This document shows, in pieces, positions 120 to 33,561 of a DNA stretch of 42,947 nt. The notes beneath the pieces were generated by a model. It did no database searches. It was not told the origin of the DNA and saw only the letters and a list, made by a program, of their open reading frames with translations. The position numbers and the translations under genes are program-made. How positions within the stretch are numbered: position 1 is the stretch's first letter; each line of letters starts with the position of its first letter. Origin of the DNA: a virus; IMG/VR virus record IMGVR_UViG_3300045988_166496, positions 1 to 42,947 of that record; one strand, 5' to 3'.

Positions 120-442
120 GCTTGAGCTAAGAAATAATAGCCTCTTATAGCATCATCTCTTAAAATATCCTTTTCTGAACCTTTTAACCAATTTACTATC
201 GCTATCTTTAAATAATTCATTTTTTCTTTGGAATAGTCCATTATATCAAATACATATGTTATAACTCTCTCCCCATATGGTACATCCCCATAAAGGGCGG
301 TAAAATCATACTCACCTTGCATAAATGGAACACTATCTTTTACATAGTTAACAGTTGGTATACCAATTTCTTTAGATTTTATAGAAATTCCAAAATCTTT
401 ATATGAATGTTTATCTTTAAATAAAATTCCATATCCTATCAT
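1..442 (-). CDS. Distal tail protein (Dit, Sipho_tail-like), N-terminal part. The gene continues in frame at 42828..42572 in the circle (699 nt, 232 aa in total).
   Basis: ATG at 442 overlaps the TMP stop (ATGA). My translation is MIGYGILFKDKHSYKDFGISIKSKEIGIPTVNYVKDSVPFMQGEYDF... It runs off position 1 and sits immediately after the tape-measure gene. Confidence 0.75.
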   Translation of the reverse strand, partial: MIGYGILFKDKHSYKDFGISIKSKEIGIPTVNYVKDSVPFMQGEYDFTALYGDVPYGERVITYVFDIMDYSKEKMNYLKIAIVNWLKGSEKDILRDDAIRGYYFLAQASEHSFKEDGLIGELTIKFTCYPFKIGNEKEGEVLWDDFC

Positions 443-3239
443 ATATTTACACCTCTATTAGATAAGTTTACCCTTTCTCCTTGGATTAACTCTAAGAATG
501 GTGCTGCTACTTGTGCTAAAACTTGGCCATTTGGCATAACTAAATCTATTTTAACTTGCTCAGGCATTTTTATTTGTTCATTTTGTTTTTCAGATATATT
601 AATGCCATTACTTCCTATTGATATATTTCTCATTAATTCTGTTCCATTATTTATAGTATCTTTTATTTTTCCTAAAAGATTTATAGAAGATCCTACTGGT
701 ATATCTGCATTTTCATCTATACCTACGCCTATTCCTTCTACGATTCCCTTACCTATAATGTCCCTCATTACCTTTGAAGGTGAATTAATTTTAAATGAAC
801 TTTGGAATCCTTTTACAACTCCATTTGCAAATGAAGAAATTTTATTTTGTAACCAACCTCCTGCGCCAGTTATTCCACTCCATATTCCTTTAACAATATC
901 TCTTCCTATGTTGGCCATTTTACTTGGAATAGATTTAAGGCCGTTAACAAGTTTATTTTTAAAATCATCTGCAGCCTTTTTACCTCTTTGTGAAAATTGT
1001 GTTGCAAAATTAATAGCTTTTTGTATTGTATTATTAAGCCATGTCCACACTCTGTTCGGTAAAGTCTTTATAAAATTTATAACATACTTTACAAAATTTG
1101 AACCTGTTTGTTTAGCTTTACTAAGCATCTGTGTTCCCCATGTAGTAACTCTAGTATATGTATTTGTAAGCCACGTCCATACTCGACTTGGTAAATTTCT
1201 GATAAAATTTATAAAATTCTTCACAAAGTTAATACCTGTTTGCTTAGCTTTATTAAGCATCTGTATTCCCCATGTAGTAACTCTAGTATATGTATTTGTA
1301 AGCCATGTCCATACTCGGCCTGGCAACTGACTAAACCAATTCCCTATTGATTCTATCCAAAGTGGTACATTTGTAGCAAAATAATTCCATGTATTTACTA
1401 TCCAACTTGCTATCGTTCCAAGTGCTACTCCTAATGCATATCCTATTTTGGCAGGTAATTGATTAAACCAATTACCAATACTACTTATAAGATTTATTCC
1501 CCATTGTATAAAAGAATTATATGTATTAGTACACCAATTCAGTATACCTTGTAATACTTCTGATAATTTATCTAATATTACTTGACCTATTCCTAAAAAT
1601 ATTTCTTTTATGACATTCCATAAATCTGTAAGTATTTGTGTAGCATTATCTTTTAAATGTGTGAATAATCCTTTAATTCCTTCAAAGGCGCCTTGCCAAT
1701 CACCTGTTAAAAGACTAATCATTATAGATATTGAATCACTTATATAGTCTACTATTAAACCAAACGAATCTTCTATAATTGCATATAAATCTATAAATGC
1801 ATCTCCAAAATAGCCATTTATGCTGTATCCCCATTCAATCAATGGTTCAAGTAAGTTTCCTAAATCATTTGCAAAAATGTCCTTTAAAGCATTTGTACCA
1901 TCTAATAGCAATTGCCTAATACTTACTATTATGTTTTTAAAATCACCTTTTAACTTTTCACCTAATTTTTTAGCATCTTGAGATAACTTATCAAAATTAC
2001 CCGAAAATAAATCTTCAAGTAATGTTTTTACGCCACTTATTAAATCACTAAAAAAAGTTTTAAATGAACCAAAAATATTCATCAATGAATTAAACGCTGT
2101 TTGTACACTTATTGGAGCTTTTACTATTACATTAAGTATATTATCCCATAAATTAATGAAGAAGTTTCTAAATGCTTCACAATTATTCCAAAGATAAATT
2201 ACTGCTGCAACTATAGCTACAATAATCGCTATAATTGGGTGCGCTGCTATTAATCCAAATAGACCACTAATTGCGCCTTTAATACTTCCAATAATACCTG
2301 TTATTCTAGCAAAATTCAGTCCCTTCAATCTTATATAGAGTCCTATTATATTGGATAAACCTGTTGCTATAGCTCCTATTAATATAAGTAAAGGTCCTAT
2401 TGCTGCTATAACCACTCCTATAATAGCTATAGTTGTCTTTGTTCCACTACTAAGTCCATTAAATTTTTCTACTAATACTTGTACTACTGATACAATTTTC
2501 TTTATGGCAGGCAATAAAGCTTCACCTATACTTATCGCTGCACCTTCAAGTGCACTTTTTAATGATGTTATTTGACCATTTAAATTATCTTGCATTGTAG
2601 CAGCTACATCATTTAAAACTCCATCGCAGTCACCAAGTTCTGCTGATAAGCTATCCCACTCTTCTGATGCACCAGATAATAATGCATTTAATGTATCTAA
2701 TTGTGTTTTACCACCAATCATAGCCAGGTATGTATCTCTTTGTTCATTTGTACATGTAGATAACTTTTGATTTAATTCATCAAATACAACTTTCAAGCCT
2801 TTAAATTTACCATCACTATCATATGCACTTATTCCTAACTTTTTCATAGCCACACCAGCTTGACCTGCTCCTGATGTTAAGTTGACCATTATTGAGTTGA
2901 GTGCATTACCAGCTTCACTACCTTTTTTACCTCTATTAGCTAAAACCCCTAAAGCAGTTGCACTTTCTTGTGTGCTTACTTTTAGGTTTTTCATAGTTCC
3001 ACCGCATGCTATATAAGCTTCTAACATAGCATCAGCTGTTGTATTACTTTTTCTTTGTGCTTGTGCACAAATATCTAAATAACTTCCTAAGTCTTTTACT
3101 TTTATTCCTAATGCCGACATACTGTCAGTAACGAGGTCTGATGTTCTGGCCAAATCGGTACCTGCTGCCTCACTTAATCTTAATATCGGTTCAATTCCTC
3201 CGAGCATTTGCGAAGTATCCCATCCGGCGAGAGCCATGT
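439..3239 (-). CDS. Tail tape measure protein, exon 2 (the spliced product with 3617..4259 is 1147 aa)
   Basis: ORF track 439..3258. It has the core MALAGWDTSQMLGGIEPILRLSEAAGTDLARTSDLVTDSMSALG typical of TP901-type TMPs, a long hydrophobic middle and W-rich C-terminal repeats. The 5' boundary is set by the splice model. Confidence 0.85.
1020..1325 (-). repeat. About 2.3 tandem copies of a 132-bp (44-aa) unit inside the tape-measure gene
   Basis: The anchor 'aagcc' recurs at 1036, 1168 and 1300, an exact 132-nt period. The peptide LP(G/S/N)RVWTWLTNTYTRVTTWG(I/T)QML(N/S)KAKQTG.NFVK..INFI is repeated. Confidence 0.85.
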
Positions 3240-3616
3240 CGAATGTTATTAACGTCAAGTTCTTTATCTTGACCTCTGGAGGTTTCCCTCATTTGAAATT
3301 ATCTCATCAACTTGTTAATTCAAGTCCAGTCTAGGGTACGCTTTTATCACATGTATTCATTTCTCAGAATACATGGCTTACTGATAGGGGACACTCATGG
3401 GGAAATTATATTCTATATAGTATCTCAACTAAATAGTTTCATTCCCAACTCGTTACGATGCCTATAACATTTTAATATTATAGGTTATCTCGGCACCAGG
3501 ACACTACACCCTCTTCCGATATTGCCCCCTCATATACCATAACCTACCTGTAAGCTTTCGTTATGGTCGCCACCAACTTTATTCCCAAGTGTATTAACAG
3601 AATAAAGTTCTTTTTT
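3240..3616 (-). ncRNA. ORF-less intervening sequence in the tape-measure gene, a candidate group I self-splicing intron (about 377 nt, junctions uncertain by a few nt)
   Basis: Its removal joins ...KESADALS-Y-MALAGWDT... in frame. It starts after a U and ends with a G. It is GC-richer than the flanks. Stems seen on the plus strand: 3575-3583/3601-3609, 3536-3543/3560-3567, 3350-3358/3367-3375, and a GAGG-GAAA-CCUC tetraloop hairpin at 3279-3290. Confidence 0.6.
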
Positions 3617-4259
3617 AGCTTAATGCATCTGCACTCTCTTTCGCACTTTTAGATGTACTTGCTCCCATTTCCTTTGCCTTTTGTTCTAAAGCTTTTAAAT
3701 CATCTCCTGTTGCTCCACTTATTGCTTCTACATTACTCATAGATGATTCAAAATCTGCAGCAGTTTTTACACTTACTGCGCCTACTCCAGTTATTGCGGC
3801 TGTTACTGGCAGTAATGCTTGTCCTGCATTTGTACATTTACTTCCAAAATCGGCTAAGTTTTCTTTAGCTGAAATTAAGCTTGCATCTACAGTTGTTCCA
3901 AAATTTCTAGCTTCTCTTTCTAAACTTTCTAGCCTTTGCTCTGTTGCTGCTATTTCTCTTTGAAAATCTCTATATTGTTGTTCTGTAATCTCTCCTCGCT
4001 CAAATTGTGCTTGAACTTGTTGTTGTGCATTTTTTAGTGTGTCTAATTTTTCTTTTGTCCTTTGTATAGATTGTGAGAGAAGATCTTGCTTCTGTTTTAT
4101 TAAAGTTACGTTTGAAGGGTCGTATTTTAAAAGTGTATTTACACCTTTTAATTCTTTTTGCAAACTTCTAGTTTGTGTATCTACATCCTTTAATGCATTA
4201 CCTAATTTGGTAGTGTCTCCACCTATTTCAATAGTAATACCTTTTAATGCTCTTCCCAT
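3617..4259 (-). CDS. Tail tape measure protein, exon 1 (N-terminal coiled-coil part)
   Basis: ORF track 3615..4259. The sequence begins MGRALKGITIEIGGDTTKLGNALKDVDTQTRSLQKELK... The in-frame stop is supplied by the first intron nucleotides. RBS is GGGAGGAG. Confidence 0.8.
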
Positions 4260-6229: not shown

Positions 6230-6531
6230 TAATAACTTTCTCCTATTAATTTAATAGTTCTATGCTTTAGCATATAATCATCATATTCTGTTATGTTATA
6301 TCTCTGATTATTATATACAATCCTATAATATTGAGTATTAAAGGCTATTTCACTTAAAGGTTTACAATATCTTATATCAAAAGTTAATATTTGCTTGGAT
6401 CTATCGGCACCAGCACTTATATTTTCAGAATAATTATAAGTGTTAATTCTAGCATGAAGTGATATATATTTACTCCAGGTATCATCATTATCATTTAATT
6501 TTTCTATTGTAATAGGTTTGTCAAATACCAT
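6229..6531 (-). CDS. Head closure / head-tail adaptor protein
   Basis: Start moved to ATG 6531 (MVFDKPITIEKLND) because AAGGAG lies 8 nt upstream. Synteny places it after the connector. Confidence 0.6.
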   Translation of the reverse strand: MVFDKPITIEKLNDNDDTWSKYISLHARINTYNYSENISAGADRSKQILTFDIRYCKPLSEIAFNTQYYRIVYNNQRYNITEYDDYMLKHRTIKLIGESY

Positions 6532-11920: not shown

Positions 11921-12427
11921 CTACCCTGAATTAAATTTATCAAATTTATTTTTCTTTGGTTCTGGTGCTTTTGGAACTACTAAACGGCATCTACTTGTTA
12001 TAGTTAATCCTAGATCACTCGCTGCCATTCTGCATTGTTTAAAATATCTATCTTGTATTTTTGACACCTCATCTAACTTTTCAACTGCTTCAGCTAATTT
12101 CTTTTCATTTTTTATATCTATTTCTTGTAAACTGTTCAAATCATTTTCTTGTAACTTTCTACTTAAAGAAATATATATATCTAAAGCTATTATATATCTA
12201 GCTAATGCATCACAATCTAAATTAGACATAATATCTAACTCAATCAATTCTTTTGCTATTTTTTTAAATTTTGTTTTTTGTGATCTATTTAAATAAGATG
12301 GTGGTTTAATATTATCTTTTGCAGCTTTTACTTCTGATTCTCTTCTTTCCTCAATAACCTTTTTTGTAAGATGATGTGATTTTCCCTTTGCCAAAATCAA
12401 ATCAACTGGTTCTTTATTTCTTGCCAT
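11921..12427 (-). CDS. terS: Terminase small subunit, P27 family-like
   Basis: A 168-aa ORF beginning MARNKEPVDLILAKGKSHHLTKKVIEERR..., directly upstream of terL. RBS is AAGGAGGTGG. Confidence 0.8.
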   Translation of the reverse strand: MARNKEPVDLILAKGKSHHLTKKVIEERRESEVKAAKDNIKPPSYLNRSQKTKFKKIAKELIELDIMSNLDCDALARYIIALDIYISLSRKLQENDLNSLQEIDIKNEKKLAEAVEKLDEVSKIQDRYFKQCRMAASDLGLTITSRCRLVVPKAPEPKKNKFDKFNSG

Positions 12428-12600
12428 TATTAACCACCTCCTTGAACTTTAAAATATCTACTCCTATGGAATTTAAAAACGGAGTTTTTTCTATAAAGAC
12501 CTCCCCTTGTATCGTTATCCCCTAACTCATTTTGTAGAATTTTAACCACCCCCTGGGTCATTGATTTTAGAGTAACTTTATGCATTTTTATTGTGATTTT
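12428..12600 (-). other. Candidate cos region (GC-richer non-coding gap between the HNH and terS genes)
   Basis: The gap holds G/C-rich tracts (gacccagggggtgg, gagttaggggataacgatacaaggggagg on the minus strand). HNH with a P27-type terS and HK97-type head genes is the known cos-packaging arrangement. Confidence 0.35.
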
Positions 12601-12999
12601 TTACCTCTTTTTATCTTTTTTCTTTATAAATTTACCATGTTTTTTATTATGACAACGTACACATAAACACTCTAAATTATTATAATCAAGTCGTCTTTCC
12701 CAGCCTTCATCGGTCTGTATTGGTACTATATGATGTACTTCTGTGGCTATAGCACCACACTCTTCACATCTATATTGTTTATCTTGTGTGTACTTCATGG
12801 ATAACATTCTCCATTGCGAACTATTATAGAATCTAATATATTTGGGATCTCGTTTCTTATTGTAATTCTTTTGAGCCTTTTTATTAGCTTCCTCTTTTCT
12901 TTTCTCTCGTTGTTTATTAATTGCACTCTGACAATCATTACAATACACCAATGGATATGGTATAAACTTTCCACACTTCTTACAAACCTTTGTTAACAT
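12601..12999 (-). CDS. HNH endonuclease (terminase-associated)
   Basis: CEECGAIATEVHHIVPIQTDEGWERRLDYNNLECLCVRCHNKKH, plus an N-terminal CxxC..CxxC. The ATG at 12999 is preferred over the TTG at 13005. Confidence 0.85.
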   Translation of the reverse strand: MLTKVCKKCGKFIPYPLVYCNDCQSAINKQREKRKEEANKKAQKNYNKKRDPKYIRFYNSSQWRMLSMKYTQDKQYRCEECGAIATEVHHIVPIQTDEGWERRLDYNNLECLCVRCHNKKHGKFIKKKDKKR

Positions 13000-13216
13000 T
13001 ATCAACTAACTCCCTTTTAAAGATATATTCTTTTATTTTATAATCCATAAACTGTATATCTTCTGGTGTTACTAAATACATTTTACCTCTATCATCTTCT
13101 ACTAATCCTTTTGTCGTTCCATCTCTTTCAATAATCCATTTATGAAATAGTGCTTTTTCTTTTCGTATTAAACATGGTCTTAACTCTACTTCGATACTTA
13201 TTACACTGTTTGCCAT
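12980..13216 (-). CDS. Hypothetical protein (78 aa)
   Basis: ORF in the operon orientation. No motif recognised. Confidence 0.5.
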   Translation of the reverse strand: MANSVISIEVELRPCLIRKEKALFHKWIIERDGTTKGLVEDDRGKMYLVTPEDIQFMDYKIKEYIFKRELVDNVNKGL

Positions 13217-13231
13217 TATAATCCCTCCAAT

Positions 13232-13267
13232 AAAAAAAGAACCTTAGTTAATATTACTAAAGGTTCT
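13232..13267 (-). terminator. Intrinsic terminator-like hairpin
   Basis: agaaccttagt / actaaaggttct stem, with a T7 run on the minus strand. Confidence 0.5.
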
Positions 13268-13276
13268 TTAACTTAA

Positions 13277-13576
13277 TTATAAATACTTTGCATATTCTTC
13301 TTTTGTAAGTTTATATTTTTTATTACATTCCTTACATGTAATAATCCCTCCACCTTTTATAATTCCTATAATACCAAGAAGTACAAATACACATGTTAGA
13401 ATTATAAATATAGGTAAACATATCCAACCTATAATAGGAATCCAAATCGAAGCGCAAATACCTAAGAAGCATATAATAGCACTTGCAAACTTCGATGATG
13501 CAGTTGAAGTTATACTTGCTTTTTTACCACACGAAGGACATTTTACTGTATTTGAGTTACTTTTAATTTCTTTCAT
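13277..13576 (-). CDS. Small membrane protein flanked by zinc-ribbon CxxC pairs
   Basis: MKEIKSNSNTVKCPSCGKK...two hydrophobic helices...CKECNKK. Start at ATG 13576 after AGAGGTGA. Confidence 0.6.
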   Translation of the reverse strand: MKEIKSNSNTVKCPSCGKKASITSTASSKFASAIICFLGICASIWIPIIGWICLPIFIILTCVFVLLGIIGIIKGGGIITCKECNKKYKLTKEEYAKYL

Positions 13577-13628
13577 ATATATCACCTCTTATTTCAATTA
13601 TATATGAATAAGAACTATTAGCCAATAT

Positions 13629-13928
13629 TTATTTCAATTCTAACAATAAGCTTCTTAAGTTTTCTTTATATCCTTCATCTTTAACTATCCTAATTAGGCT
13701 TTCTATTTCCCAATCTTTCGGTGTGTTAGGTAGCTTTTTACGTACTGCTAAATCTATTAATGACTTAGCTTTACAGAATGTTCTTATATGTGTATGACCA
13801 TCTCTAAACTTCTTTTTAGTATTATGAATTATATATCCCTTTTTTACTTTATATATTGTAAATTCCTTCCTTTGATATATCTTCTTAGCACCTTCACTTT
13901 TATCGAAGTTTGGTTTTTCACGCATCAT
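13629..13928 (-). CDS. Hypothetical protein (99 aa), first gene after the late leader; start uncertain
   Basis: ORF track. The RBS is weak. The frame stays open for 38 sense codons upstream without an ATG, GTG or TTG. Confidence 0.5.
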   Translation of the reverse strand: MMREKPNFDKSEGAKKIYQRKEFTIYKVKKGYIIHNTKKKFRDGHTHIRTFCKAKSLIDLAVRKKLPNTPKDWEIESLIRIVKDEGYKENLRSLLLELK

Positions 13929-14032
13929 TTCTTCTAGTTTCCAGTAACGTTCTGGAACTTCTATCGTAGCTGTAATAACCTCATTAATATCTTTATAAAC
14001 TTTCCCACCTTTTTCAACTCCTTTAATAAAAT

Positions 14033-14066
14033 AAAAAAGGACTACTTAAATTAAGTAATCCTTTTT
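14033..14066 (-). terminator. Strong intrinsic terminator between the sigma-like activator gene and the late genes
   Basis: aggactactta-aat-taagtaatcct hairpin at 14038-14062, with a T-run on the minus strand. A second hairpin, gtgtca/tgacac at 14068-14084, precedes it. Confidence 0.7.
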
Positions 14067-14189
14067 CGTGTCATTTTCTGACACCTATCAAATCAGTGGT
14101 ATTTTAAATGTTTTTTATTATTTATATAGTAACACAAGTTATGTACACTTTGTGTCTAATATTTGTCTAAATTTAATACATTTTTTGTA

Positions 14190-25722: not shown

Positions 25723-25920
25723 TTGATAAATATAGAAAAAGAAATAAAAAAAATTTTAATAGATGAAAATTTAAATGTTTCTAAATTGGCAAACTTACTT
25801 AATACAAGTAGTCAAAATTTAACTGCTAAACTAAAAAGAAATAATCTGAAATTAAATGATATACAAGAAATTGCAAATGCATTAGGGTATCATGTTGAAA
25901 TATCATTCAAAAAAAATTAA
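25723..25920 (+). CDS. Small XRE-type HTH protein upstream of the serine recombinase (regulator or directionality-factor candidate)
   Basis: LNVSKLANLLNTSSQNLTAKLKRNNLKLNDIQEIANALGY. The TTG start lies 6 nt after AGAGGTGA. Confidence 0.6.
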   Translation: MINIEKEIKKILIDENLNVSKLANLLNTSSQNLTAKLKRNNLKLNDIQEIANALGYHVEISFKKN

Positions 25921-25936: not shown

Positions 25937-27589
25937 ATGAAAATAGCAATTTACTGTAGAGTTTCAACTCATCATCAAATAGATAAAGAATCTTTACCTT
26001 TCCAAGAACAGGATTTAAAAAATTATTGTAAATGTGTATTAGGTAGTAATAATTATGTTGTTTTTAAAGATCCTGGGTATTCTGGGAAAAATACAGAACG
26101 ACCAGATTTTAAAAATATGTTTGAAAGAATAAGAAAAAATGAATTTACTCATTTACTTGTATGGAAAATAGATAGAATTTCTAGAAATTTATTAGATTTT
26201 TGTAGCATGTATAACGAGTTAAAACAATACAATTGCACATTTATATCTAAAAATGAGCAATTTGACACTTCTTCTGCAATGGGTGAAGCAATGCTAAAGA
26301 TAATTCTTGTTTTTGCAGAACTCGAAAGAAACTTAACATCTGAAAGAGTATCTGCTATTATGATTAATCGTGCTCAAGAAGGTCGTTGGAATGGTGCTAA
26401 TGTTCCTCTAGGGTATTATTGGGATGATTCTTCTGCTTTTCCATTAATAGATAATGCAGAATCAGAAATAATAAAGTCTATTTATAATATATATGAAAAA
26501 GAACAATCTGCTAATAGAGTTCTTAATTATTTAGTGGAAAATAATATTAAAACTAAACGTGGAGGTAATTGGACTACTAAAACCATCTGTGATGTTATAA
26601 GAAATCCTTTTTATATGGGAACATATAGATATAATTATCGTGAATCTGCAAGAGGTAAATTAAAAGATTCCAGTGAATGGATTATAAAAGAAAATAATCA
26701 TCAGGCCATAATTTCTAAAAAGCAATGGCAAAAATGTAATGATATTATGGATGAAAATGCTCGAACTAATCACAGTAAAAATAGAAGATATAATCAAATT
26801 CATATTTTTAGAGGATTATTAAGATGTAATGTATGTGGTGGTAATATGTATGGTGCTAAAGATAGACCTAGAAAAGATGGATTTCGTCCATCAAGATATC
26901 GCTGTTCTAATTCTCATAAAGAAACTTGTAATACTAAAATAGTTACAGATGTAACTTTAGGTCCATTTGTTATTAATTATTTAATTAATTTTATAAATCT
27001 TATAAATAATAGTAAACAAATAAATAGTATAGATGACATTAAATCTTTTTTATTAAATGGTACTGATTTTAAAGATATTGATTTAACTGAAGATACTTTA
27101 TTTAATATATATGTGTCTTTAAACATAAATAATAAGCTTATACCTTTACCAGATACAGAAAGTAAAGATATGAAAGTAAATAGTGAAGAAATAAAACTAA
27201 CTAGAGAAATAAATAAATTTAAAAAAGCCTTAGAAAGATTAGATGATCTATATTATTTTGATGAAAAGGGTATTAGTGAAAAAGATTATTTAATAAAGAA
27301 AAAAGATTTTGAAAATAAATTAAATGATGCTAATAATAAATTAAAATCTATATCTGAAAATGAGCCTACAAATTTTTACGATTTTGATTTTTTAAGTTCA
27401 GCTTCTGAATTTTTATTACAAAATAATATAAAAAAACATATAGACTTTAAGATGTTTTACATGACTATAGATAATGAAAAAATATATAATTTTGTAAAAT
27501 CATTAGTTAAAGAAATTTTTATAAATGAAGATGGTTCTATATATTCTATAACCTTTAAAAATGGTTTAGTACATTATTTTATTTACTAA
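25937..27589 (+). CDS. Large serine recombinase (integrase type)
   Basis: MKIAIYCRVSTHHQ resolvase catalytic N-terminus, a recombinase domain, a CNVCGG..C..C zinc ribbon and a long coiled-coil C-terminus. 550 aa. Confidence 0.9.
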   Translation: MKIAIYCRVSTHHQIDKESLPFQEQDLKNYCKCVLGSNNYVVFKDPGYSGKNTERPDFKNMFERIRKNEFTHLLVWKIDRISRNLLDFCSMYNELKQYNCTFISKNEQFDTSSAMGEAMLKIILVFAELERNLTSERVSAIMINRAQEGRWNGANVPLGYYWDDSSAFPLIDNAESEIIKSIYNIYEKEQSANRVLNYLVENNIKTKRGGNWTTKTICDVIRNPFYMGTYRYNYRESARGKLKDSSEWIIKENNHQAIISKKQWQKCNDIMDENARTNHSKNRRYNQIHIFRGLLRCNVCGGNMYGAKDRPRKDGFRPSRYRCSNSHKETCNTKIVTDVTLGPFVINYLINFINLINNSKQINSIDDIKSFLLNGTDFKDIDLTEDTLFNIYVSLNINNKLIPLPDTESKDMKVNSEEIKLTREINKFKKALERLDDLYYFDEKGISEKDYLIKKKDFENKLNDANNKLKSISENEPTNFYDFDFLSSASEFLLQNNIKKHIDFKMFYMTIDNEKIYNFVKSLVKEIFINEDGSIYSITFKNGLVHYFIY

Positions 27590-27597
27590 ATATAAAT

Positions 27598-27637
27598 AAG
27601 ACCGCCTAAATCTATTGATATTAGCGGTCTTTTATTT
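27598..27637. terminator. Bidirectional terminator hairpin
   Basis: aagaccgc / gcggtctt stem at 27598-27631, with T-rich runs on both strands. Confidence 0.65.
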
Positions 27638-27802
27638 CATGTGTAGGTTGTTCATTTGACATCCAAATGTAACACAATGCACGCGTGGTTTTCTTCCTCT
27701 TTCTCTTTCGAAATGATAAGTATATTCTCTCATTTTATCTATATATCTTTCCTGTTCTCTTATTTTTTCCATAGGAACAGTTACTTGTTTTCTTTTTGAC
27801 AT
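27632..27802 (-). CDS. 56-aa ORF ending in a MiaB-like N-terminal motif (host-gene 5'-end mimic; not in the ORF track)
   Basis: AAGGAG RBS and an extended -10 (TGATATAAT, plus-strand 27837-27845). Sequence is MSKRKQVTVPMEKIREQERYIDKMREYTYHFERERGRKPRVHCVTFGCQMNNLHMK. Confidence 0.5.
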   Translation of the reverse strand: MSKRKQVTVPMEKIREQERYIDKMREYTYHFERERGRKPRVHCVTFGCQMNNLHMK

Positions 27803-27884
27803 TTATTATATCTCCTTTCAAATTAATGCAAAATTTATTATATCATAAATATTGAAAAATATATAAAAAAATATACATTATTAT

Positions 27885-27925
27885 AAAAAATAAAGAAGTA
27901 CATTAAAAATTATTTGTACTTCTTT
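27885..27925 (-). terminator. Terminator of the FtsK-like / replication-relaxation operon
   Basis: 11-bp perfect stem aaagaagtaca / tgtacttcttt, followed by a T-run on the minus strand. Confidence 0.75.
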
Positions 27926-27956
27926 ATATCTACTATTATAATATTATTAGATAGTT

Positions 27957-29030
27957 TTATTGCTTCTTGGCCTTATTACTATCTGAAGCATTTACTGTTG
28001 CAGCAGTAGATGCTTCTTTTTTTATCTTAAAACATTGAATTTCTCTTACACTATTTCCTGTAAAAATCTTACCATGCCCTTTACCTTTTAAATTTATTAA
28101 AGCTTCATAATCTCCACTCAATACTTTAGATGCTTCTTTTGTATTTACTTTCAAGCATATCTTTGTATTTATATTCGCCTTTAGCTTGCCCGGCAAAACC
28201 TCTCTATATGGTGTTTGTGTAGTTAATATAATATTTATTTTTGCTGCTCTTCCTTTCGCTAATAATTCTCCTAACATCTTATAAATTGCCTTATCTTCTT
28301 TTGGATCAAACGATGCTAATTCTTCAATAACTAAAAAAATATGTTTAAATTTTAAGTTTTCATTTTTATTTAAGCTTAAATATCTTTTATTCATTTCATT
28401 TATTAACTTCTCTAATACTTCCTCTATTCCGTCTTTACCCTGACCATAATATTTAGCTTTATCTTTATATTTAAATAAATCAACCATTTTTGTGTCCTGA
28501 AGATATAATTCTACATTTTTTCTTTTAATTAAATTATTTATAATAACATCTAGGCATACACTCTTTCCACTTCCAGTAGCTCCACCAATTAGTAGATGGC
28601 ACTGCGTAGGTGAATCAAATTTCCAATAAACTATTTTATTTGTATTTAGATCTATAGCTACAGGAACACCTTTTTTATTATCAAAATTATATTTTTCATA
28701 ATCGTATACTAAAATTGGATTAAAAATACTTATCTCTATCATATTATTTTTATTTTCTATCCTTAAAGATACTTCCTTTATTTTTAAAAAAGCAGCTATT
28801 TCCGATTTATATTTTTTAAAGTCTTTTATACTTAATCCTATTGGTATCGTAAAATAAAATACTTCATTTTCAACTTTATTTTGTAATACTGGATATTCTT
28901 TACTTCTATTACACAAATCTAATTCATGCCAAAGTTTATCCCAGTCATATTTTTTCTTTAATAGTATATTTTCTATTGCTTTAGTAGCATCAAAAATGCT
29001 ATCAATTAATAATTTAATCAATAAAATCAC
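27957..29030 (-). CDS. FtsK/SpoIIIE-family DNA translocase-like ATPase (TcpA/TraB-type)
   Basis: Walker A is LLIGGATGSGKS and Walker B is HIFLVIEELA. 357 aa. Confidence 0.8.
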   Translation of the reverse strand: MILLIKLLIDSIFDATKAIENILLKKKYDWDKLWHELDLCNRSKEYPVLQNKVENEVFYFTIPIGLSIKDFKKYKSEIAAFLKIKEVSLRIENKNNMIEISIFNPILVYDYEKYNFDNKKGVPVAIDLNTNKIVYWKFDSPTQCHLLIGGATGSGKSVCLDVIINNLIKRKNVELYLQDTKMVDLFKYKDKAKYYGQGKDGIEEVLEKLINEMNKRYLSLNKNENLKFKHIFLVIEELASFDPKEDKAIYKMLGELLAKGRAAKINIILTTQTPYREVLPGKLKANINTKICLKVNTKEASKVLSGDYEALINLKGKGHGKIFTGNSVREIQCFKIKKEASTAATVNASDSNKAKKQ

Positions 29031-29595
29031 CTACTTTCTCTAGGTTTAAATTATCATATACCACTTTTATATCATTTAGTTTTTTATTTAAATTTTGATT
29101 GTTAACCACATAAAGCACCGGCATAACCTGCCAATTAGTATTTTCTATTACAACTTCTCTGAAATTATGGTATTTACTTAGGCAGTCATTCGGTGATATT
29201 TGTACCTCTAAAATTATTCTTTTTACTCTTCCATTCTTTTTAATTTTTATCAAAGCATCAGGTATTATATTTCCAATTTTACAAGATCTTTCAAATTCAA
29301 TTATCTCATAGCCTTCTTGTATAAACTTTACAATAACATCAGTTACAATCAAGTCATGCTTTACTATTTTCTTTCCTGGCTTTCTATCCATATAGTACAC
29401 ATATGCATTTCTTCTTTTATTTTTATCAAGATTATAAGTATCTCGTCTTATATAATCTGCATCGGATAAATATTTCAAACGTCTCATTGCTACATTTTGG
29501 TGAACATCTTTAAAAAACATTTGTTGGACCTGTTCACGTGTGCATACTCTTACTAATGATACAAATTCTAAAACTTTCATATCTCTATCTTCCAT
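29014..29595 (-). CDS. Replication-relaxation family protein
   Basis: MEDRDMKVLEFVSLVRVCTREQVQQMFFKDVHQNVAMRRLKYLSDADYIRRD is a winged-helix N-terminus typical of Replic_Relax. RBS is AGGGGGAA. Confidence 0.65.
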   Translation of the reverse strand: MEDRDMKVLEFVSLVRVCTREQVQQMFFKDVHQNVAMRRLKYLSDADYIRRDTYNLDKNKRRNAYVYYMDRKPGKKIVKHDLIVTDVIVKFIQEGYEIIEFERSCKIGNIIPDALIKIKKNGRVKRIILEVQISPNDCLSKYHNFREVVIENTNWQVMPVLYVVNNQNLNKKLNDIKVVYDNLNLEKVGDFID

Positions 29596-29901
29596 ATTTA
29601 TTCCCCCTAAATTAATTTATAGTAAAGTATATGCTCCAATGCTTTAAATATGTTAATAAATATTTGATTTATTATGTTTCATATATTTAGTGAAGTATTT
29701 AAATCAACTTTTTCAAGCTTCACACATCATTTTATAGTTATTTCAATAGCTACTACTTGTACAAAGTTACAGTTTAAATATAAGGATAAAAATAAAATAC
29801 TTTAATATTATTTTTATATTATAAATATGTTTCTTGATTTCTATAATATAGTAAGCTTACGTGTATTTACACGTTGTTAAAAAGGCGGAAATGAGGAAAA
29901 T

Positions 29902-30909
29902 ATGCATGTAGTAAAAGAAAACAATAAATCGTATAATGAACAATTCATAATGAAAGCTTCTAAAGAAATTTCTGAACAATTTAACTTTAACATCATTCAA
30001 CAAAGGGCTTTGGTCGACACTCTATATCGTTGTACAAATAACTTAGAAATTATAAGATTAACTCAAGAAACTGGAGATTTTTTAAGTTATTTAGATATCT
30101 ATGTAAATGCAATCAAATTAGAAGGGCAATCAGAAGATACAATTAAGAATAAAAAATATATGTTACTTGAATTAAACAGATATTTATCTAAAAAAATAGA
30201 AGATATTACACTTTCTGATTTAAAGATGTATATTCTTCATAAGCAAGCTGATTGTGCTGCTAATTCTCTGAATGGGATAATTGTATGTATTAAAACATTT
30301 TTCAATTATTTATATGAAGATGATTATATCGACAATAATCCAGCAAGAAAGTTAAAAAAAATCAAAGAAGAAACTCGATTAAGAAAATCTTTAAGTGAAA
30401 TTACTTTTGAAGAAATAAGATCTTGTTGTAATAATATTCGTGATAAAGCTTTAATAGAGTTTACATATGCATCTGGTTTAAGAGTTTCAGAAATATCAAA
30501 ATTAAATATTTCTGATTTAGATTTTTCAAGTAATGAATTTTCAGTTATTGGAAAAGGTAAAAAAGAAAGAGTTGTAATTTTTTCAAATATCTCTAAGTTT
30601 TATCTTCAAAAATATCTTGATAGTAGAACTGATGATAATCCAGCTCTATTTGTATCATTAAAAAGACCTTATAACCGATTAGGTAAAAGAGGTATAGAAA
30701 AAATATTTGAAAGGATTAAAAAAAGATTAGGTTTAGAAGAATTTTATCCTCATTTACTAAGACATACCATGGCCACTCGTCTTGCTGAGACTGCAGATAT
30801 TACTACTGTTCAAGCCTTGTTAGGTCATAAGAATGTCAACACTACTCTTATTTATGCAGAAAAGAATAATGACAAAGTAGCTTTTCAATATAAAAATTCT
30901 AGACTTTAA
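29902..30909 (+). CDS. XerC/D-like tyrosine recombinase
   Basis: ASGLRVSE (R), HLLRHT (HxxR) and LGHKNVNTTLIYAE (H..Y). A SAM-like N-terminal domain precedes them. Confidence 0.9.
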   Translation: MHVVKENNKSYNEQFIMKASKEISEQFNFNIIQQRALVDTLYRCTNNLEIIRLTQETGDFLSYLDIYVNAIKLEGQSEDTIKNKKYMLLELNRYLSKKIEDITLSDLKMYILHKQADCAANSLNGIIVCIKTFFNYLYEDDYIDNNPARKLKKIKEETRLRKSLSEITFEEIRSCCNNIRDKALIEFTYASGLRVSEISKLNISDLDFSSNEFSVIGKGKKERVVIFSNISKFYLQKYLDSRTDDNPALFVSLKRPYNRLGKRGIEKIFERIKKRLGLEEFYPHLLRHTMATRLAETADITTVQALLGHKNVNTTLIYAEKNNDKVAFQYKNSRL

Positions 30910-30938
30910 TATTTTTTTTAATTTAAATTTATTTTATT

Positions 30939-30982
30939 TAAGTATCTTTTAATTATTTTTAATTTTAAGATACTTATTTTTT
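30939..30982 (+). terminator. Terminator of the tyrosine recombinase gene
   Basis: taagtatctt / aagatactta 10-bp stem followed by a T6 run. Confidence 0.65.
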
Positions 30983-31292
30983 ATTTTTAAAAAATTAAAT
31001 TAATTTTATTTAATTTATATTTTAGGTAAATAAGATTTTATTTATTTTTTTTAATTTTAATTAAATATTTTTTGTTTAATCTTATTTGAAGTTTATTTTT
31101 ATTTTATTTAAATATTTTAAAATAATATAAAATATTTAATATTTAATTTAGTTTTTTTTAGTTTAAATTTATCTAAAAAAAATAATTAAAACTTGAATTT
31201 ATTTTATTTAATTTATATTAAATTAAAATAGCTTAACTTTGTTTAATTAAAATTAAATTAACTTTGTTTAAATTAAATTTGACTAAAATAAA
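30983..31292. repeat. Extremely AT-rich non-coding island with dispersed direct repeats (iteron- or att-like)
   Basis: ATTTTATTTAA occurs at 31004, 31101 and 31201 within this interval, with flanking copies at 30931 and 31351. The longer repeat attttatttaatttatat occurs twice (31004, 31201), taactttgtttaa twice (31243, 31259), and tttaatcttattt once here (31076) and once just outside (31331). It lies between two convergent terminators. Confidence 0.7.
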
Positions 31293-31328
31293 TAAAAAAA
31301 AGTTAGAAAAAATTAAATTTCCTAACTT
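31293..31328 (-). terminator. Terminator closing the lysis operon
   Basis: aagttag / ctaactt stem followed by a T8 run on the minus strand. Confidence 0.6.
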
Positions 31329-31357
31329 TTATTTAATCTTATTTTTTTATATTTTAT

Positions 31358-31447
31358 TTAAATAAACATATTTAATAAAAACATACTTACAGCGCCTATT
31401 CCAATATAAGTTAATCTTCCTATTACTTCTAATAGATTTTTTCTCAT
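31358..31447 (-). CDS. 29-aa hydrophobic peptide downstream of the endolysin (not in the ORF track)
   Basis: AAAGGAGG RBS 7 nt before the ATG. Sequence is MRKNLLEVIGRLTYIGIGAVSMFLLNMFI. Confidence 0.45.
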   Translation of the reverse strand: MRKNLLEVIGRLTYIGIGAVSMFLLNMFI

Positions 31448-31545
31448 GACAATACCTCCTTTATTGGGAGTATCGACTTCTCCTGGAATATTTATACATC
31501 ATTTCTTTTTTTATTGGTCGCTATTGGTCGCTATCGTACTATTCT

Positions 31546-32355
31546 TTAAACAGCTTCTATATATTTACTTGAAGTATTTATATATCCAAAATCCCCTTCA
31601 ACCCAAATTGATGCCCAACCATCTTTCACATAACCTAATATAAATTCTTGTCCTTTTTCCATAACAAATTTTTTAGCTGCTAATGTTCCATCTGTATCTG
31701 GGCGATTAGATCTTACATTTAAAGTATTTGATATAACTTTATACTTTTTATTGTAATCTCCATTTTTTAGCTGTTTATATTCTATACTTGAATTTGTTTT
31801 TTCTGTAAGTTTTCTTTTAAACCAAGTCCAGCTATAACCATATTTAGAGGCTCTTAACCACGAAGGGCAATCTTTTCTAGTCCAATCATAATGTGCTTTA
31901 GGTACTAATTTATTATTATATTCTAACAATACTTTATATAAAGCTATAGCGTTTAAATATGCTTGATATTGTTTTGCTTTATCAGTATACATACATATTT
32001 CTATACTTATAGATGTATTATTTCCACTTGTGCATCCTTGTGCATATGCCTTCCAATGAAATGGGCAGTTTTGTATTATTTTATTGTAACCAACTGTAAC
32101 ATGCCAACTTGCTAATCTATAATTACTTTTAGAAGTTCCAGCATATTTATCATTATTTGCATTTTCTAAAGCTAAATGCATTCTAGGTGCATCAACATTT
32201 ATACAATCAGTTTGATGAAATGTTACTGATGTAGCATTTATTTTTGTCCCTGGAATACAACTCCCTTTGCCTAACAGTTCATTACTTACTACAATTGCAT
32301 TTCCTATTTTAATACCATTTACTAATACATTATTTTTTATTTTACTCATCCTCAT
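31546..32355 (-). CDS. Endolysin: N-acetylmuramoyl-L-alanine amidase (Amidase_2/PGRP type) with a C-terminal SH3-like domain
   Basis: ...SVTFHQTD...WHVTVGYN...SISIEICMY...AHYDWTRKDCPSWL. The C-terminal sequence is YKVISNTLNVRSNRPD...GWASIWVEGDFGYIN. Confidence 0.85.
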   Translation of the reverse strand: MRMSKIKNNVLVNGIKIGNAIVVSNELLGKGSCIPGTKINATSVTFHQTDCINVDAPRMHLALENANNDKYAGTSKSNYRLASWHVTVGYNKIIQNCPFHWKAYAQGCTSGNNTSISIEICMYTDKAKQYQAYLNAIALYKVLLEYNNKLVPKAHYDWTRKDCPSWLRASKYGYSWTWFKRKLTEKTNSSIEYKQLKNGDYNKKYKVISNTLNVRSNRPDTDGTLAAKKFVMEKGQEFILGYVKDGWASIWVEGDFGYINTSSKYIEAV

Positions 32356-32752
32356 TACCTTCTTTCTTTAATTGGATTAGTGCTTTTTTTATAGGATCTG
32401 GTACATTTATTCCTATTTCGCAGCAATTTTCTAGTATACTTATTCCTTCATTTGCTATATAAAAATAACAAACTAAGGTTCTAAACATCCATGCTCCTGA
32501 ATTTAATATTCTATCTAATGCTACTCCTACTATAAGTACTATAAATATAACTGCTTTTCTAGCTATTCCATGTAAACCTACATTAGAAGATACAGTTTTA
32601 TTTACAAATGCTTTTATTAAACCTGCTATATAATCTAGTACTATAAAAAGTACTAATACACTTAAAGCTATATCCCATGCTCCAAATAGCCATGTAAAAA
32701 ACGTTCCTATAACAGATGCCACTATACTTATTTTCTCACTATAAATATTCAT
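32342..32752 (-). CDS. Holin (phage_holin_4 / TcdE-like family)
   Basis: 136 aa with 3-4 TM segments. WDIALSVLVLFIVLDYIAGLIKAF is typical. It lies directly upstream of and overlapping the endolysin gene. Confidence 0.8.
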   Translation of the reverse strand: MNIYSEKISIVASVIGTFFTWLFGAWDIALSVLVLFIVLDYIAGLIKAFVNKTVSSNVGLHGIARKAVIFIVLIVGVALDRILNSGAWMFRTLVCYFYIANEGISILENCCEIGINVPDPIKKALIQLKKEGNEDE

Positions 32753-32776
32753 CCTTCCCTCCTTGTAATTGATATT

Positions 32777-32803
32777 AAAAAAGGACTGTACCGCTACAGT
32801 CCT
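32777..32803 (-). terminator. Terminator after the membrane-protein moron
   Basis: aggactgta-ccgc-tacagtcct followed by a T6 run on the minus strand. Confidence 0.75.
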
Positions 32804-32849: not shown

Positions 32850-33425
32850 TTACATTGTTATCACCTTCTTTAAATTTTCTTTTTTATATACACGTAGATA
32901 AAAAATGTTATCTACGGCTATACCTATAAACATAAATATAAAACCTATATTTGTTGGTAATGTTATTTTCCAGCTAAATGCAAATCCTATTATACTTGTA
33001 AGGTAACAATAATAATTTGTTTTATTATCAAATTTTTCTCTTTCTTCACCTTTATATCTAAGTGCTTTTAATCTTGTCCCTCCACAAATCACATTTCTTG
33101 TAATAAGAGCATTTAATATCGCATCTCCTACATAATACATTCCTGCTGTTGCAATTCCTGTTAAATATGCCCCTGTTAATAATCCATAGACTATTCCCTC
33201 TAGCACTAACATTGTACCAAAAGTTTTATATAAGTATTTGCTACGATCTAACCATATTCTAGTAATTAGCATAGCTATTATGCAATTTACTAAACTTGCA
33301 AAACTCATAATATTAGAGTTAATATCTTGCATTGTTATAGTATGAACCACTGGATAAGCCATGCTATAAAATAAATTACTTACAGCTCCTGCTATTAATA
33401 GTTCATCTACATTTCTATGTTTCAT
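32850..33425 (-). CDS. Polytopic membrane protein (191 aa, about 5-6 TM segments), a moron
   Basis: ATG 33425 (MKHRNVDELL) lies after AAGGAG. It has its own upstream and downstream terminators and no recognisable family. Confidence 0.65.
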   Translation of the reverse strand: MKHRNVDELLIAGAVSNLFYSMAYPVVHTITMQDINSNIMSFASLVNCIIAMLITRIWLDRSKYLYKTFGTMLVLEGIVYGLLTGAYLTGIATAGMYYVGDAILNALITRNVICGGTRLKALRYKGEEREKFDNKTNYYCYLTSIIGFAFSWKITLPTNIGFIFMFIGIAVDNIFYLRVYKKENLKKVITM

Positions 33426-33442
33426 TTTGCATCTCCTTAAAT

Positions 33443-33473
33443 AAAAAAGAGCAGTTAAATATTTAGCTGCTCT
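33443..33473 (-). terminator. Terminator after the 25-aa peptide gene
   Basis: agagcag / ctgctct stem followed by a T6 run on the minus strand. Confidence 0.6.
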
Positions 33474-33483
33474 ATGATCTTGT

Positions 33484-33561
33484 TTAATTTGTACCAAATA
33501 TTATCAATATTGAAAATATAATTGTCGTACATATCATCAGAGTTTTATAAAAGTCAAACAT
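33484..33561 (-). CDS. 25-aa hydrophobic peptide (not in the ORF track)
   Basis: GGAGG RBS 5 nt before the ATG. Sequence is MFDFYKTLMICTTIIFSILIIFGTN. Its own terminator follows. Confidence 0.4.
   Translation of the reverse strand: MFDFYKTLMICTTIIFSILIIFGTN

Follow-up and report, generated by a model that had tools for sequence, protein, structure and literature searches.

Three adjacent genes at positions 27957-30909 of IMG/VR virus record IMGVR_UViG_3300045988_166496 (positions 1 to 42,947 of the record, hereafter the window) encode an FtsK/SpoIIIE-like ATPase, a Replic_Relax protein and a Xer-like tyrosine recombinase. The ATPase and Replic_Relax genes lie on the minus strand and the recombinase gene on the plus strand. 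Comparison with related phages and prophages divides the three genes into two independent units, neither of which is a parasite of the phage: a core pair, Replic_Relax followed by the FtsK-like gene, that is fixed in position, and an optional recombinase cassette on its lysis side. The first unit is a two-gene operon spanning positions 27880-29825, and the second, spanning 29826-31340, is the recombinase cassette, which is linked to the lysis module. On balance we lean towards reading the pair as a core cassette that combines a nuclease-fold adaptor with a DNA pump acting on phage DNA, the recombinase being separate from it.

The comparison was based on 32 related contigs from Intestinibacter and Romboutsia phages and prophages, which were gathered via Replic_Relax, via the ATPase and, independently, via Rep. 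Replic_Relax is followed by the FtsK-like gene in 32/32 contigs, and the two always form the last operon before the phage attachment site (attP) or the host junction. In four chromosomal contigs (L003, L004, L008 and L009) no further prophage gene stands between the ATPase gene and the host genes, and the position at the end of the prophage is kept in relatives at 40-50% identity (L062 and L064), where the pair lies behind variable cargo. All 12 Rep-anchored loci in which the region is visible contain the pair. It adjoins three unrelated integrases, namely two serine integrases, one of them that of the window with its miaB fragment, and an arm-binding tyrosine integrase, and it occurs behind at least three differing lysis cassettes and several tail modules. 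Neither a relative without the pair nor an empty site precisely lacking 27.6-31.3 kb was found among the related contigs.

The recombinase is undetectable in 13 of the 32 contigs. One contig, L009, derives from an L008-like prophage by an imprecise deletion that left the 3' end of the recombinase gene in place. Pairwise identities are discordant as well. The window and L003 share a 99% identical recombinase and 93-99% identical adjoining lysis genes, but their Replic_Relax and ATPase proteins are only 59% and 66% identical. The integrase, miaB fragment and cI of the window are 98.9%, 100% and 99% identical to those of L015, which has the other type of pair and no recombinase; Rep, ParA and ParB are 100% identical to those of L027, which also has the other type of pair. 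The pair thus exists as two allelic types, 58/69% identical, and behaves as a self-contained cassette: which type a phage carries is independent of its Rep/ParAB and its integrase. Between the types, the wHTH (winged helix-turn-helix) domain of Replic_Relax (~50% identity) and the N-domain of the ATPase (56%) differ more than the catalytic domains (62% and 72%). Since the pair is fixed, the recombinase is optional and the identities are discordant, the two units are independent of one another.

The window is itself a recombinant of such lineages. Comparison by blastn places the joint at 29804-29825: positions 27500-29825 are 97-98% identical to L055, L056 and L058, positions 29804-32802 are 90% identical to L003, and the two segments overlap by 22 bp. 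In relatives, small open reading frames (ORFs) and an HTH_26 regulator gene stand between the two units; the window has lost them.

These results bear on an initial annotation of the window, which had described the three genes as one mobilisable-element module nested in the phage. The three ORFs were confirmed at the coordinates it gave, as were their domain identities, with PF01580, PF13814 and PF00589 all above curated Pfam thresholds, and their location between the serine integrase and the lysis genes. A single module is contradicted by the absence of the recombinase from 13 of the 32 contigs and by identities of 99% on one side and 59/66% on the other. The divergent intergenic region, taken as a feature of the module, turned out to be a recent recombination joint. 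The annotation also stated that its proposal would fail if the block were core in all relatives; core status holds for the pair, and the recombinase is optional.

The Replic_Relax protein (193 amino acids (aa), 29014-29595, minus strand) matches PF13814 with 32.5 bits (cutoff 25.3) and phrog_9996 at 1.6e-18 over its full length. The PF13814 match aligns residues 9-70 only, and the PF13814 tag is present on all homologues. A sequence search of the PDB gave no match even at E 10, and the domain assignment is based on structure prediction. A first AlphaFold2 (AF2) model, computed from 17 close sequences, had a confidence score (pLDDT) of 41 and was unusable. Addition of the Bacillus clade to the alignment yielded a usable C-terminal domain, with pLDDT 74-90 over residues 80-170. 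Foldseek searches of the PDB matched the N-terminus (residues ~1-75) to MarR-type winged HTH proteins and the C-terminal domain (residues ~79-165) to XisH, FokI, NucS/EndoMS, Bax1, AF1548, tRNA-splicing endonuclease and a number of restriction enzymes. The scores reach only modest values (best E 6.5e-4, TM 0.36-0.48); the type of protein matched is nonetheless consistent, the matches of the C-terminal domain being nearly all PD-(D/E)xK nucleases. Against viral models, the best matches were gp146 of Bacillus phage G and a protein of phage JL, at ~1e-10. The model is consistent with a MarR-like wHTH followed by a PD-(D/E)xK nuclease fold, and PF13814 has been placed in the PD-(D/E)xK superfamily (PMC3424549). 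Asp113, Glu130 and Val131 do not vary among the proteins of the window, of Bacillus phages and of plasmids from Clostridium and Thermoanaerobacterium. The motif of the window protein reads Glu130-Val131-Gln132, and among the homologues the position of the canonical nuclease-motif lysine is occupied by Gln, His or Asp.

The FtsK/SpoIIIE-family ATPase (357 aa, 27957-29030, minus strand) matches PF01580 with 52.3 bits (cutoff 24) and phrog_1358 at 1.7e-48. Its Walker A motif is GATGSGKS and its Walker B motif IFLVIEE. Matches to FtsK motor structures in the PDB range from 2e-12 (2ius) to 9e-17, and residues 32-318 align with a solved 'DNA translocase coupling protein' (6o1w-z, E 2e-10), which we take to be TcpA, the database giving the molecule name only. 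NCBIfam matches to TraB and TraD are weak; plasmid_TraB, for example, scores 3e-7 and 29 bits against a cutoff of 800. No credible transmembrane segment was found in the protein, the maximum Kyte-Doolittle score over 19 residues being 1.68, on a charged amphipathic N-terminus. The ATPase also gave no match to the Ftsk_gamma domain (PF09397), which the cellular homologues compared do carry. It is thus predicted to be a soluble FtsK-family member consisting of the alpha/beta motor only. The end of the Replic_Relax gene overlaps the start of the ATPase gene by 17 nt, which suggests that the ATPase is translationally coupled to the upstream gene. Profile scans of genome contigs with the ATPase alone or with its alignment returned only a 29%-identical Bacteroidales match.

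The operon ends in an intrinsic terminator at 27880-27927 (minus strand) with a 13-bp stem, a 12-nt loop and a U-run (-18 kcal/mol, z = -2.74), as the initial annotation had proposed. A further hairpin followed by a T-run lies inside the 3' end of the FtsK-like gene on the plus strand (27953-28020; 14-bp stem at 27985-28016, then T7). This segment gives a near-threshold Rfam match to the P22 sar antisense RNA (RF00262, 42.4 bits against a gathering threshold of 43; E 1.5e-7 to 2e-6), and nothing in the Rfam and tRNA scans reached a gathering threshold. The hairpin is also present in L055 (38.7 bits) and is not found in L003 or L007. It is probably a plus-strand terminator. An exact 14-nt repeat, TAGATGCTTCTTTT, occurs at 28007 and 28127.

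Upstream of the pair, a control region at 29596-29825 (minus strand) is a candidate operator or cis-site. In an alignment of 14 relatives, three elements in it are common to both allelic types: the motif GTTTAAATA (29772-29780), a palindrome of 8 bp, TTGTACAA (within 29756-29764), and an inverted repeat, GTGAAG/CTTCAC (29690-29695 / 29718-29723). The region was rejected as a strongly conserved cis-element, because only these short motifs are common and its identity is below that of coding DNA. No unusual single-strand fold was found within 29596-29825.

The tyrosine recombinase (335 aa, 29902-30909, plus strand) matches PF00589 at 7.6e-37 and has SAM-like N-domains. It contains the full catalytic set R..K..HxxR..H..Y and an extra N-terminal region of ~60 aa, and it has no arm-binding domain. 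Its NCBIfam scores are all below cutoff (XerA 200.2 bits, cutoff 220; XerC 180, cutoff 335; XerD 161, cutoff 330), and its PDB match is the XerC-like protein 4a8e (3e-33). The protein resembles XerC/XerD-dif, XerA, XerS and Cre/lox recombinases in being arm-less and two-domain with a full catalytic set, on a replicon that encodes Rep and ParAB. It differs from the Xer systems in falling below every curated Xer cutoff and in being optional in its lineage. No dif-like 11-6-11 site was identified for it. Similar arm-less recombinases lie beside tail or lysis genes in Terrisporobacter phage TPELB_ph1 and Bacillus phage PfEFR-4, both of which have another integrase or transposase. The window protein is probably a multimer-resolution or auxiliary recombinase. 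It does not appear to be the integrase, a role that falls to the large serine recombinase, with miaB as the likely target.

Just upstream of the ribosome-binding site of the recombinase gene lies a 16-bp perfect palindrome, ACGTGTA-TT-TACACGT, with a chance expectation of 0.04 per window. The initial annotation had recognised it exactly, one base off from its actual position at 29859-29874. A variant is present in L019. As a conserved recombination site or operator the palindrome was rejected, being absent from L003, whose recombinase is 99% identical. The AT-rich repeat island noted earlier downstream of the gene is real (30910-31340; GC 0.18-0.21) and consists of degenerate 10-50-nt repeats. 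It is colinear with L003 and common to the L003 lineage only; other recombinase-bearing relatives have ~200 bp at this position.

The large serine recombinase (25937-27589, plus strand) flanks the block on the side of the pair. Between it and the ATPase gene, on the attP side of the cassette, a 56-aa ORF (27632-27802, minus strand) with a promoter-like match at 27832-27805 (minus strand) looks like a replacement for the 5' end of host miaB. Over its first 60 nt it agrees at 54/60 positions with the start of a gene for a 482-aa MiaB (L089, 2105-3553), which scores 546 bits against the TIGR01574 equivalog (cutoff 355) and lies on a metagenome contig of 29% GC. The ORF matches phrog_38798 at 5e-11, and it gave no informative match to the PDB or Pfam. 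An exact-match metagenome scan for the phage-side fragment returned zero matches; the host MiaB was found by a later motif scan. Both the phage fragment and the host gene carry codons for TFGCQMN, and the similarity stops directly after them. This end of similarity therefore places attP at ~27651-27670. The 20-mer ACATTTGGATGTCAAATGAA at 27651-27670 (minus strand), which encodes TFGCQMN and is exactly common to miaB-type genes, is the probable attP core and would be the crossover site of the large serine integrase. Most likely the integrase inserts into the TFGCQMN-coding motif of miaB, with the phage fragment restoring the gene. The predicted prophage would have the integrase at one end and the miaB' fragment and ATPase gene at the other.

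Two further observations concern the integrase and its surroundings. A 65-aa HTH_26 protein encoded directly upstream of it (25723-25920, plus strand) is 49% identical to the product of the HTH_26 gene that precedes Replic_Relax in relatives, the copy on the Replic_Relax side having been lost from the window. The best NCBIfam match of the serine integrase is XisF, a recombinase assisted by XisH, and XisH, an excision-controlling factor of the fdxN element, is the best PDB neighbour of the Replic_Relax nuclease domain; the Replic_Relax-FtsK pair always abuts attP. This parallel is probably a coincidence of the minimal PD-(D/E)xK fold.

A comparable pair has been described in Bacillus phages as a 'DNA translocation operon', consisting of a MobC-like relaxase and a coupling ATPase without a transmembrane segment (Pathria et al. 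2012, PMC3357382). Its carriers include 0305phi8-36 (orf200/orf201), SPO1 (gp27.3/27.4), GBSV1, BV1 and gamma/Cherry/Fah/Wbeta; temperate carriers have recombinase genes adjoining the operon, and no other relaxase family was found in phages (PMC3357382). HHpred ties the phage homologues to CloDF13 MobC, and deletion of the operon from 0305phi8-36 left plaque growth unaffected (PMC3357382). The ATPase of phage Fah is classed as delayed-early (PMC4113786). In papers on Bacillus phages, plasmid prophages are linked to Xer recombinases, Replic_Relax and partition genes (PMC7685451, PMC9658697), and other authors label the genes as replication or segregation factors of plasmid prophages, without experiments.

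Our searches found an annotated FtsK and replication-relaxation pair, mostly with FtsK first, in many Bacillus phages, among them the temperate PfEFR-4, phiCM3, BtCS33 and GBSV1 and the strictly lytic phi29-like DLc1 and SPO1-like myoviruses. It is also present on Clostridium perfringens and C. botulinum plasmids or phage-plasmids and on a Thermoanaerobacterium megaplasmid. Phage and plasmid matches to Replic_Relax came only from the endospore-forming Bacillus, Geobacillus, Cytobacillus, Clostridium, Paraclostridium, Thermoanaerobacterium, Intestinibacter and Romboutsia, apart from two records that bear the labels Staphylococcus and Stenotrophomonas and are nearly identical to phages of Bacillus. 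In pMU3262, SpoIIIAC/AD-like and Spo0E-like genes flank the pair.

The pair of the window appears from these comparisons to be the Clostridial counterpart of the Bacillus-phage operon. Both consist of an HTH and MobC/PD-(D/E)xK-type gene that overlaps the gene for an FtsK/AAA_10-type ATPase without a transmembrane segment, and both lie near lysis and site-specific recombinase genes, as in temperate Bacillus phages. However, the window proteins are only ~20-30% identical to those of the Bacillus operons, their hosts are gut Peptostreptococcaceae, Replic_Relax comes first (the order is reversed, FtsK followed by Replic_Relax, in PfEFR-4, DLc1 and the plasmids), and in the window lineage the cassette always lies at the attP end of the prophage and exists in two exchangeable allelic types. 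Since the pair was already described in Bacillus phages, the window adds a member to a known group, and what is new is the host clade, the gene order, the placement at attP and the allelic types.

Other systems are similar in part. The pair shares with a MOB_C relaxase and its coupling protein, such as CloDF13 MobC/MobB, the PF13814 family, an architecture of HTH plus restriction-endonuclease-like domain and an adjoining ATPase of the FtsK/T4CP superfamily (type IV coupling proteins, T4CPs). TraX of pAD1 is another MOB_C relaxase. Unlike these relaxases, the window protein is short (193 aa) and has EVQ instead of ExK, and the plasmids that bear a homologue are typed non-mobilizable (17/17, MOB-suite). 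TcpA of C. perfringens pCW3 is an FtsK-like motor of similar size from a Clostridial background, but the phage ATPase lacks a transmembrane segment and has no Tcp genes nearby. The Streptomyces TraB/clt system resembles the pair in relying on a single FtsK-like pump and a short cis-site near its own gene, which in the window is a candidate only. TraB recognises clt by a C-terminal wHTH of its own and depends on mycelial contact. In the window, by contrast, the wHTH is on a separate nuclease-fold protein, and the ATPase scores far below the TraB cutoff.

In the mechanism that we propose for the pair, the wHTH domain of Replic_Relax would recognise a target that belongs to the phage's DNA and most likely lies inside the cassette. 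Candidate targets are the upstream TTGTACAA palindrome, the GTGAAG/CTTCAC inverted repeat, and both the hairpin and the 14-nt repeats within the ATPase gene's 3' end. The nuclease-fold domain would nick or hold the DNA at the recognised site, and the adaptor would load the hexameric FtsK/TcpA-like ATPase on phage DNA, which the ATPase would then pump directionally. The purpose is the least certain step; it may be the moving or disentangling of non-packaged phage genomes across a closing septum of an endospore-forming host, into a daughter cell or a forespore. We offer tentatively that non-packaged phage genomes are passed or cleared across septa formed in division or sporulation, because the pair turned up in our searches only in elements of endospore formers, is kept by lytic phages, is dispensable for plaque formation and has sporulation-like neighbours on pMU3262. 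A broader version, in which both temperate and lytic phages of endospore-forming Firmicutes carry a sequence-addressed pump, made of a relaxase-fold adaptor and an FtsK-like motor, that moves naked phage DNA without a virion, into the forespore to yield a heritable spore-carrier state or through a borrowed conjugation pore into a neighbouring cell, is doubtful. On that reading, as the cassette lies at the prophage end and points into the host junction, it could also mobilise adjacent host DNA.

Several observations weigh against the proposed mechanism or its purpose. Cleavage by Replic_Relax is not assured, because the third catalytic residue is Gln (EVQ) rather than Lys. The ATPase has neither a membrane anchor nor the sequence-reading gamma domain, which is awkward for septal pumping and equally for docking to a T4SS (type IV secretion system). 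The upstream region is 54% identical between the allelic types, compared with 67-73% for coding DNA, and only short motifs stand out in it. An integrated prophage needs no help in entering the spore. The correlation with spore formers draws on a few tblastn queries and depends on database composition. Finally, the ATPase has weak PADLOC matches to mad8 (1.3e-21), SspH (2.5e-18) and HerA, which, with defence-type cargo nearby, makes a role in defence possible.

Homology most directly suggests a conjugation-like escape, in which Replic_Relax would be a MOB_C relaxase acting at an origin of transfer (oriT) in the cassette and the ATPase a coupling protein that feeds phage or prophage-adjacent DNA into the T4SS of a resident plasmid or integrative and conjugative element. 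The link to mobilisation machinery drawn in the initial annotation holds as homology: PF13814 is the family that CONJscan types as MOB_C relaxases (PMC5357655), HHpred connects phage homologues to CloDF13 MobC (PMC3357382), and the ATPase aligns end-to-end with the coupling protein 6o1w-z and weakly with TraB and TraD. The cassette is self-contained, its DNA-binding domain diverges between the allelic types, and T4CPs without a transmembrane domain exist; TcpA itself has N-terminal transmembrane domains and acts within the Tcp T4SS (PMC7434980). We nevertheless regard this escape as unlikely. No mating-pore or T4SS genes were found among the annotated genes of the window, the remainder being standard siphovirus, regulation and replication genes, or in the related loci examined, and the ATPase has no transmembrane segment of its own. 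All 17 typed plasmids with a homologue are non-mobilizable, and the pair is kept by the strictly lytic Bacillus phages DLc1, SPO1-like phages and 0305phi8-36, where transfer by mating fits poorly. In the searches run here the pair was not seen in phages of conjugation-rich, non-sporulating Firmicutes, and the 193-aa protein of the window is much shorter than the structurally matched relaxase-like proteins of phages (~275 aa). A role in segregation, with the recombinase resolving replicon multimers at the AT island or palindrome upon activation by the Replic_Relax-targeted motor, as in FtsK-XerCD-dif, we consider rather improbable. The Xer-like recombinase does adjoin an FtsK-family motor, the phage has Rep and ParA/ParB and a circular assembly, and the literature cited above links Xer, Replic_Relax and partition genes with plasmid prophages and puts a recombinase next to the operon. 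However, 13 of the 32 contigs, like more distant relatives, have the pair and no recombinase, recombination affects each unit independently of the other, the ATPase has no XerD-contacting gamma domain, neither the palindrome nor the AT island is conserved along with the recombinase, and the type of pair does not co-vary with Rep/ParAB.

Prophage defence or exclusion, with a nuclease-fold effector and an FtsK/HerA-like ATPase attacking incoming phage or plasmid DNA, would suit the position between lysis genes and attP, a classic moron or defence locus, and the pair's own promoter region and terminator, as well as the PADLOC matches of the ATPase, the two diverged allelic types and the cargo of relatives, which includes TIR, SMC/AAA_15, methyltransferase and GIY-YIG genes. 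Replic_Relax, however, has no PADLOC match, and the pair is invariant while the cargo varies, so that it behaves as the flank of a hotspot. It is also conserved in lytic phages and plasmids and is delayed-early during lytic growth of Fah (PMC4113786), and we judge defence to be improbable indeed. The hitch-hiking integrative mobilisable element of the initial annotation, made up of recombinase, relaxase and coupling protein and nested in the phage, is largely refuted and retains hardly any likelihood. Its gene content is superficially that of such an element, and a weak AT-rich direct repeat (29786-29831 / 30890-30935, 76% identical) flanks the recombinase gene. Yet no relative has an empty site, the pair occupies the same site in every related contig with the region visible, across three integrase types, the recombinase is lost or exchanged independently, and the composition of the three-gene block is that of the remaining phage genome. 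The relatives that should precisely lack the block and the direct repeats expected at its borders were not found; direct repeats were rejected as att sites of a nested element, there being only AT-rich matches of 70-80%.

The window as a whole is a complete temperate siphovirus genome of ~28% GC in a circular assembly, with a true length of 42,828 bp after removal of a 119-bp exact terminal overlap. From its gene content and relatives it is identified as an integrating temperate siphovirus of Peptostreptococcaceae, of the Intestinibacter/Romboutsia type. Genes for TerS/TerL, portal, capsid, tape measure and tail lie on the minus strand. Products of the early region are a HUH rolling-circle-type Rep (PF23343), a VRR-NUC nuclease, ParA, ParB and a single-stranded DNA-binding protein, and the lysogeny module encodes a cI-like repressor and the large serine recombinase (550 aa). 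Megablast of 24.5-33.5 kb against phages gave no match. The initial annotation had called the genome a phage-plasmid, and the circular contig, the HUH Rep and ParA/ParB agree with this; the window also has a serine integrase with attP in a miaB fragment, and relatives of the phage occur integrated in chromosomes.

On the lysis side, the block is flanked by the amidase and holin genes (31546-32752, minus strand). An ORF for a 29-aa hydrophobic peptide (MRKNLLEVIGRLTYIGIGAVSMFLLNMFI, 31343-31432, minus strand) lies downstream of the amidase, with a homologous small ORF in L014. Directly 3' of the endolysin stop codon, a 10-bp tandem repeat, TATTGGTCGC, is present in 2.3 copies (31512-31534); L014 has four copies as the reverse complement (~6300-6340), and the repeat is kept behind differing amidase types. 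It may be a candidate protein-binding array. A 215-aa multi-pass membrane protein is encoded upstream of the holin (32850-33497, minus strand); Pfam, PHROG and PADLOC gave no match to it. Two minus-strand ORFs (439-3258 and 3615-4259) make up a split tape-measure gene, and both match tape-measure protein families. The gap of ~355 nt between them (3259-3614) contains stops in every frame, is locally GC-richer (0.37-0.38) and gave no Rfam intron match. Possible causes of the split are an intron or insertion that went unrecognised, a frameshift and an error of assembly.

The region between the lysis genes and the pair is a variable cargo hotspot in L064 (1300-8100) and L062 (4800-8230), with the pair as its conserved flank; TIR-domain, SMC/AAA_15 ATPase, DNA methyltransferase, GIY-YIG and DNA ligase genes are among the cargo. 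On the other side of the pair, the close relative L054 has an ISL3-family transposase and a 297-aa ORF inserted between the FtsK-like gene and the integrase (11932-14149).

Few gene pairs of unsolved function are as widespread in the phages and phage-plasmids of Bacillus and Clostridia as the Replic_Relax/FtsK pair, whose annotations vary between 'replication initiation', 'segregation' and 'relaxase/coupling protein'. The window adds a large and well-sampled lineage from gut Clostridia, in which the pair lies at the attP end, exists in two exchangeable types and flanks a hotspot of defence-type cargo, and it provides a clean comparative argument that the pair is a core function of the phage and not its parasite. 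Because the pair is pinned to attP, comes in two allelic types and flanks the hotspot, its specificity determinants and cis-site are experimentally tractable. Among Firmicute phages the module itself is nothing unusual, and the question of its function can be approached well in this lineage. If the pair does move phage DNA without a virion, the boundary between transduction and conjugation would be blurred; otherwise it would be a routine accessory module.

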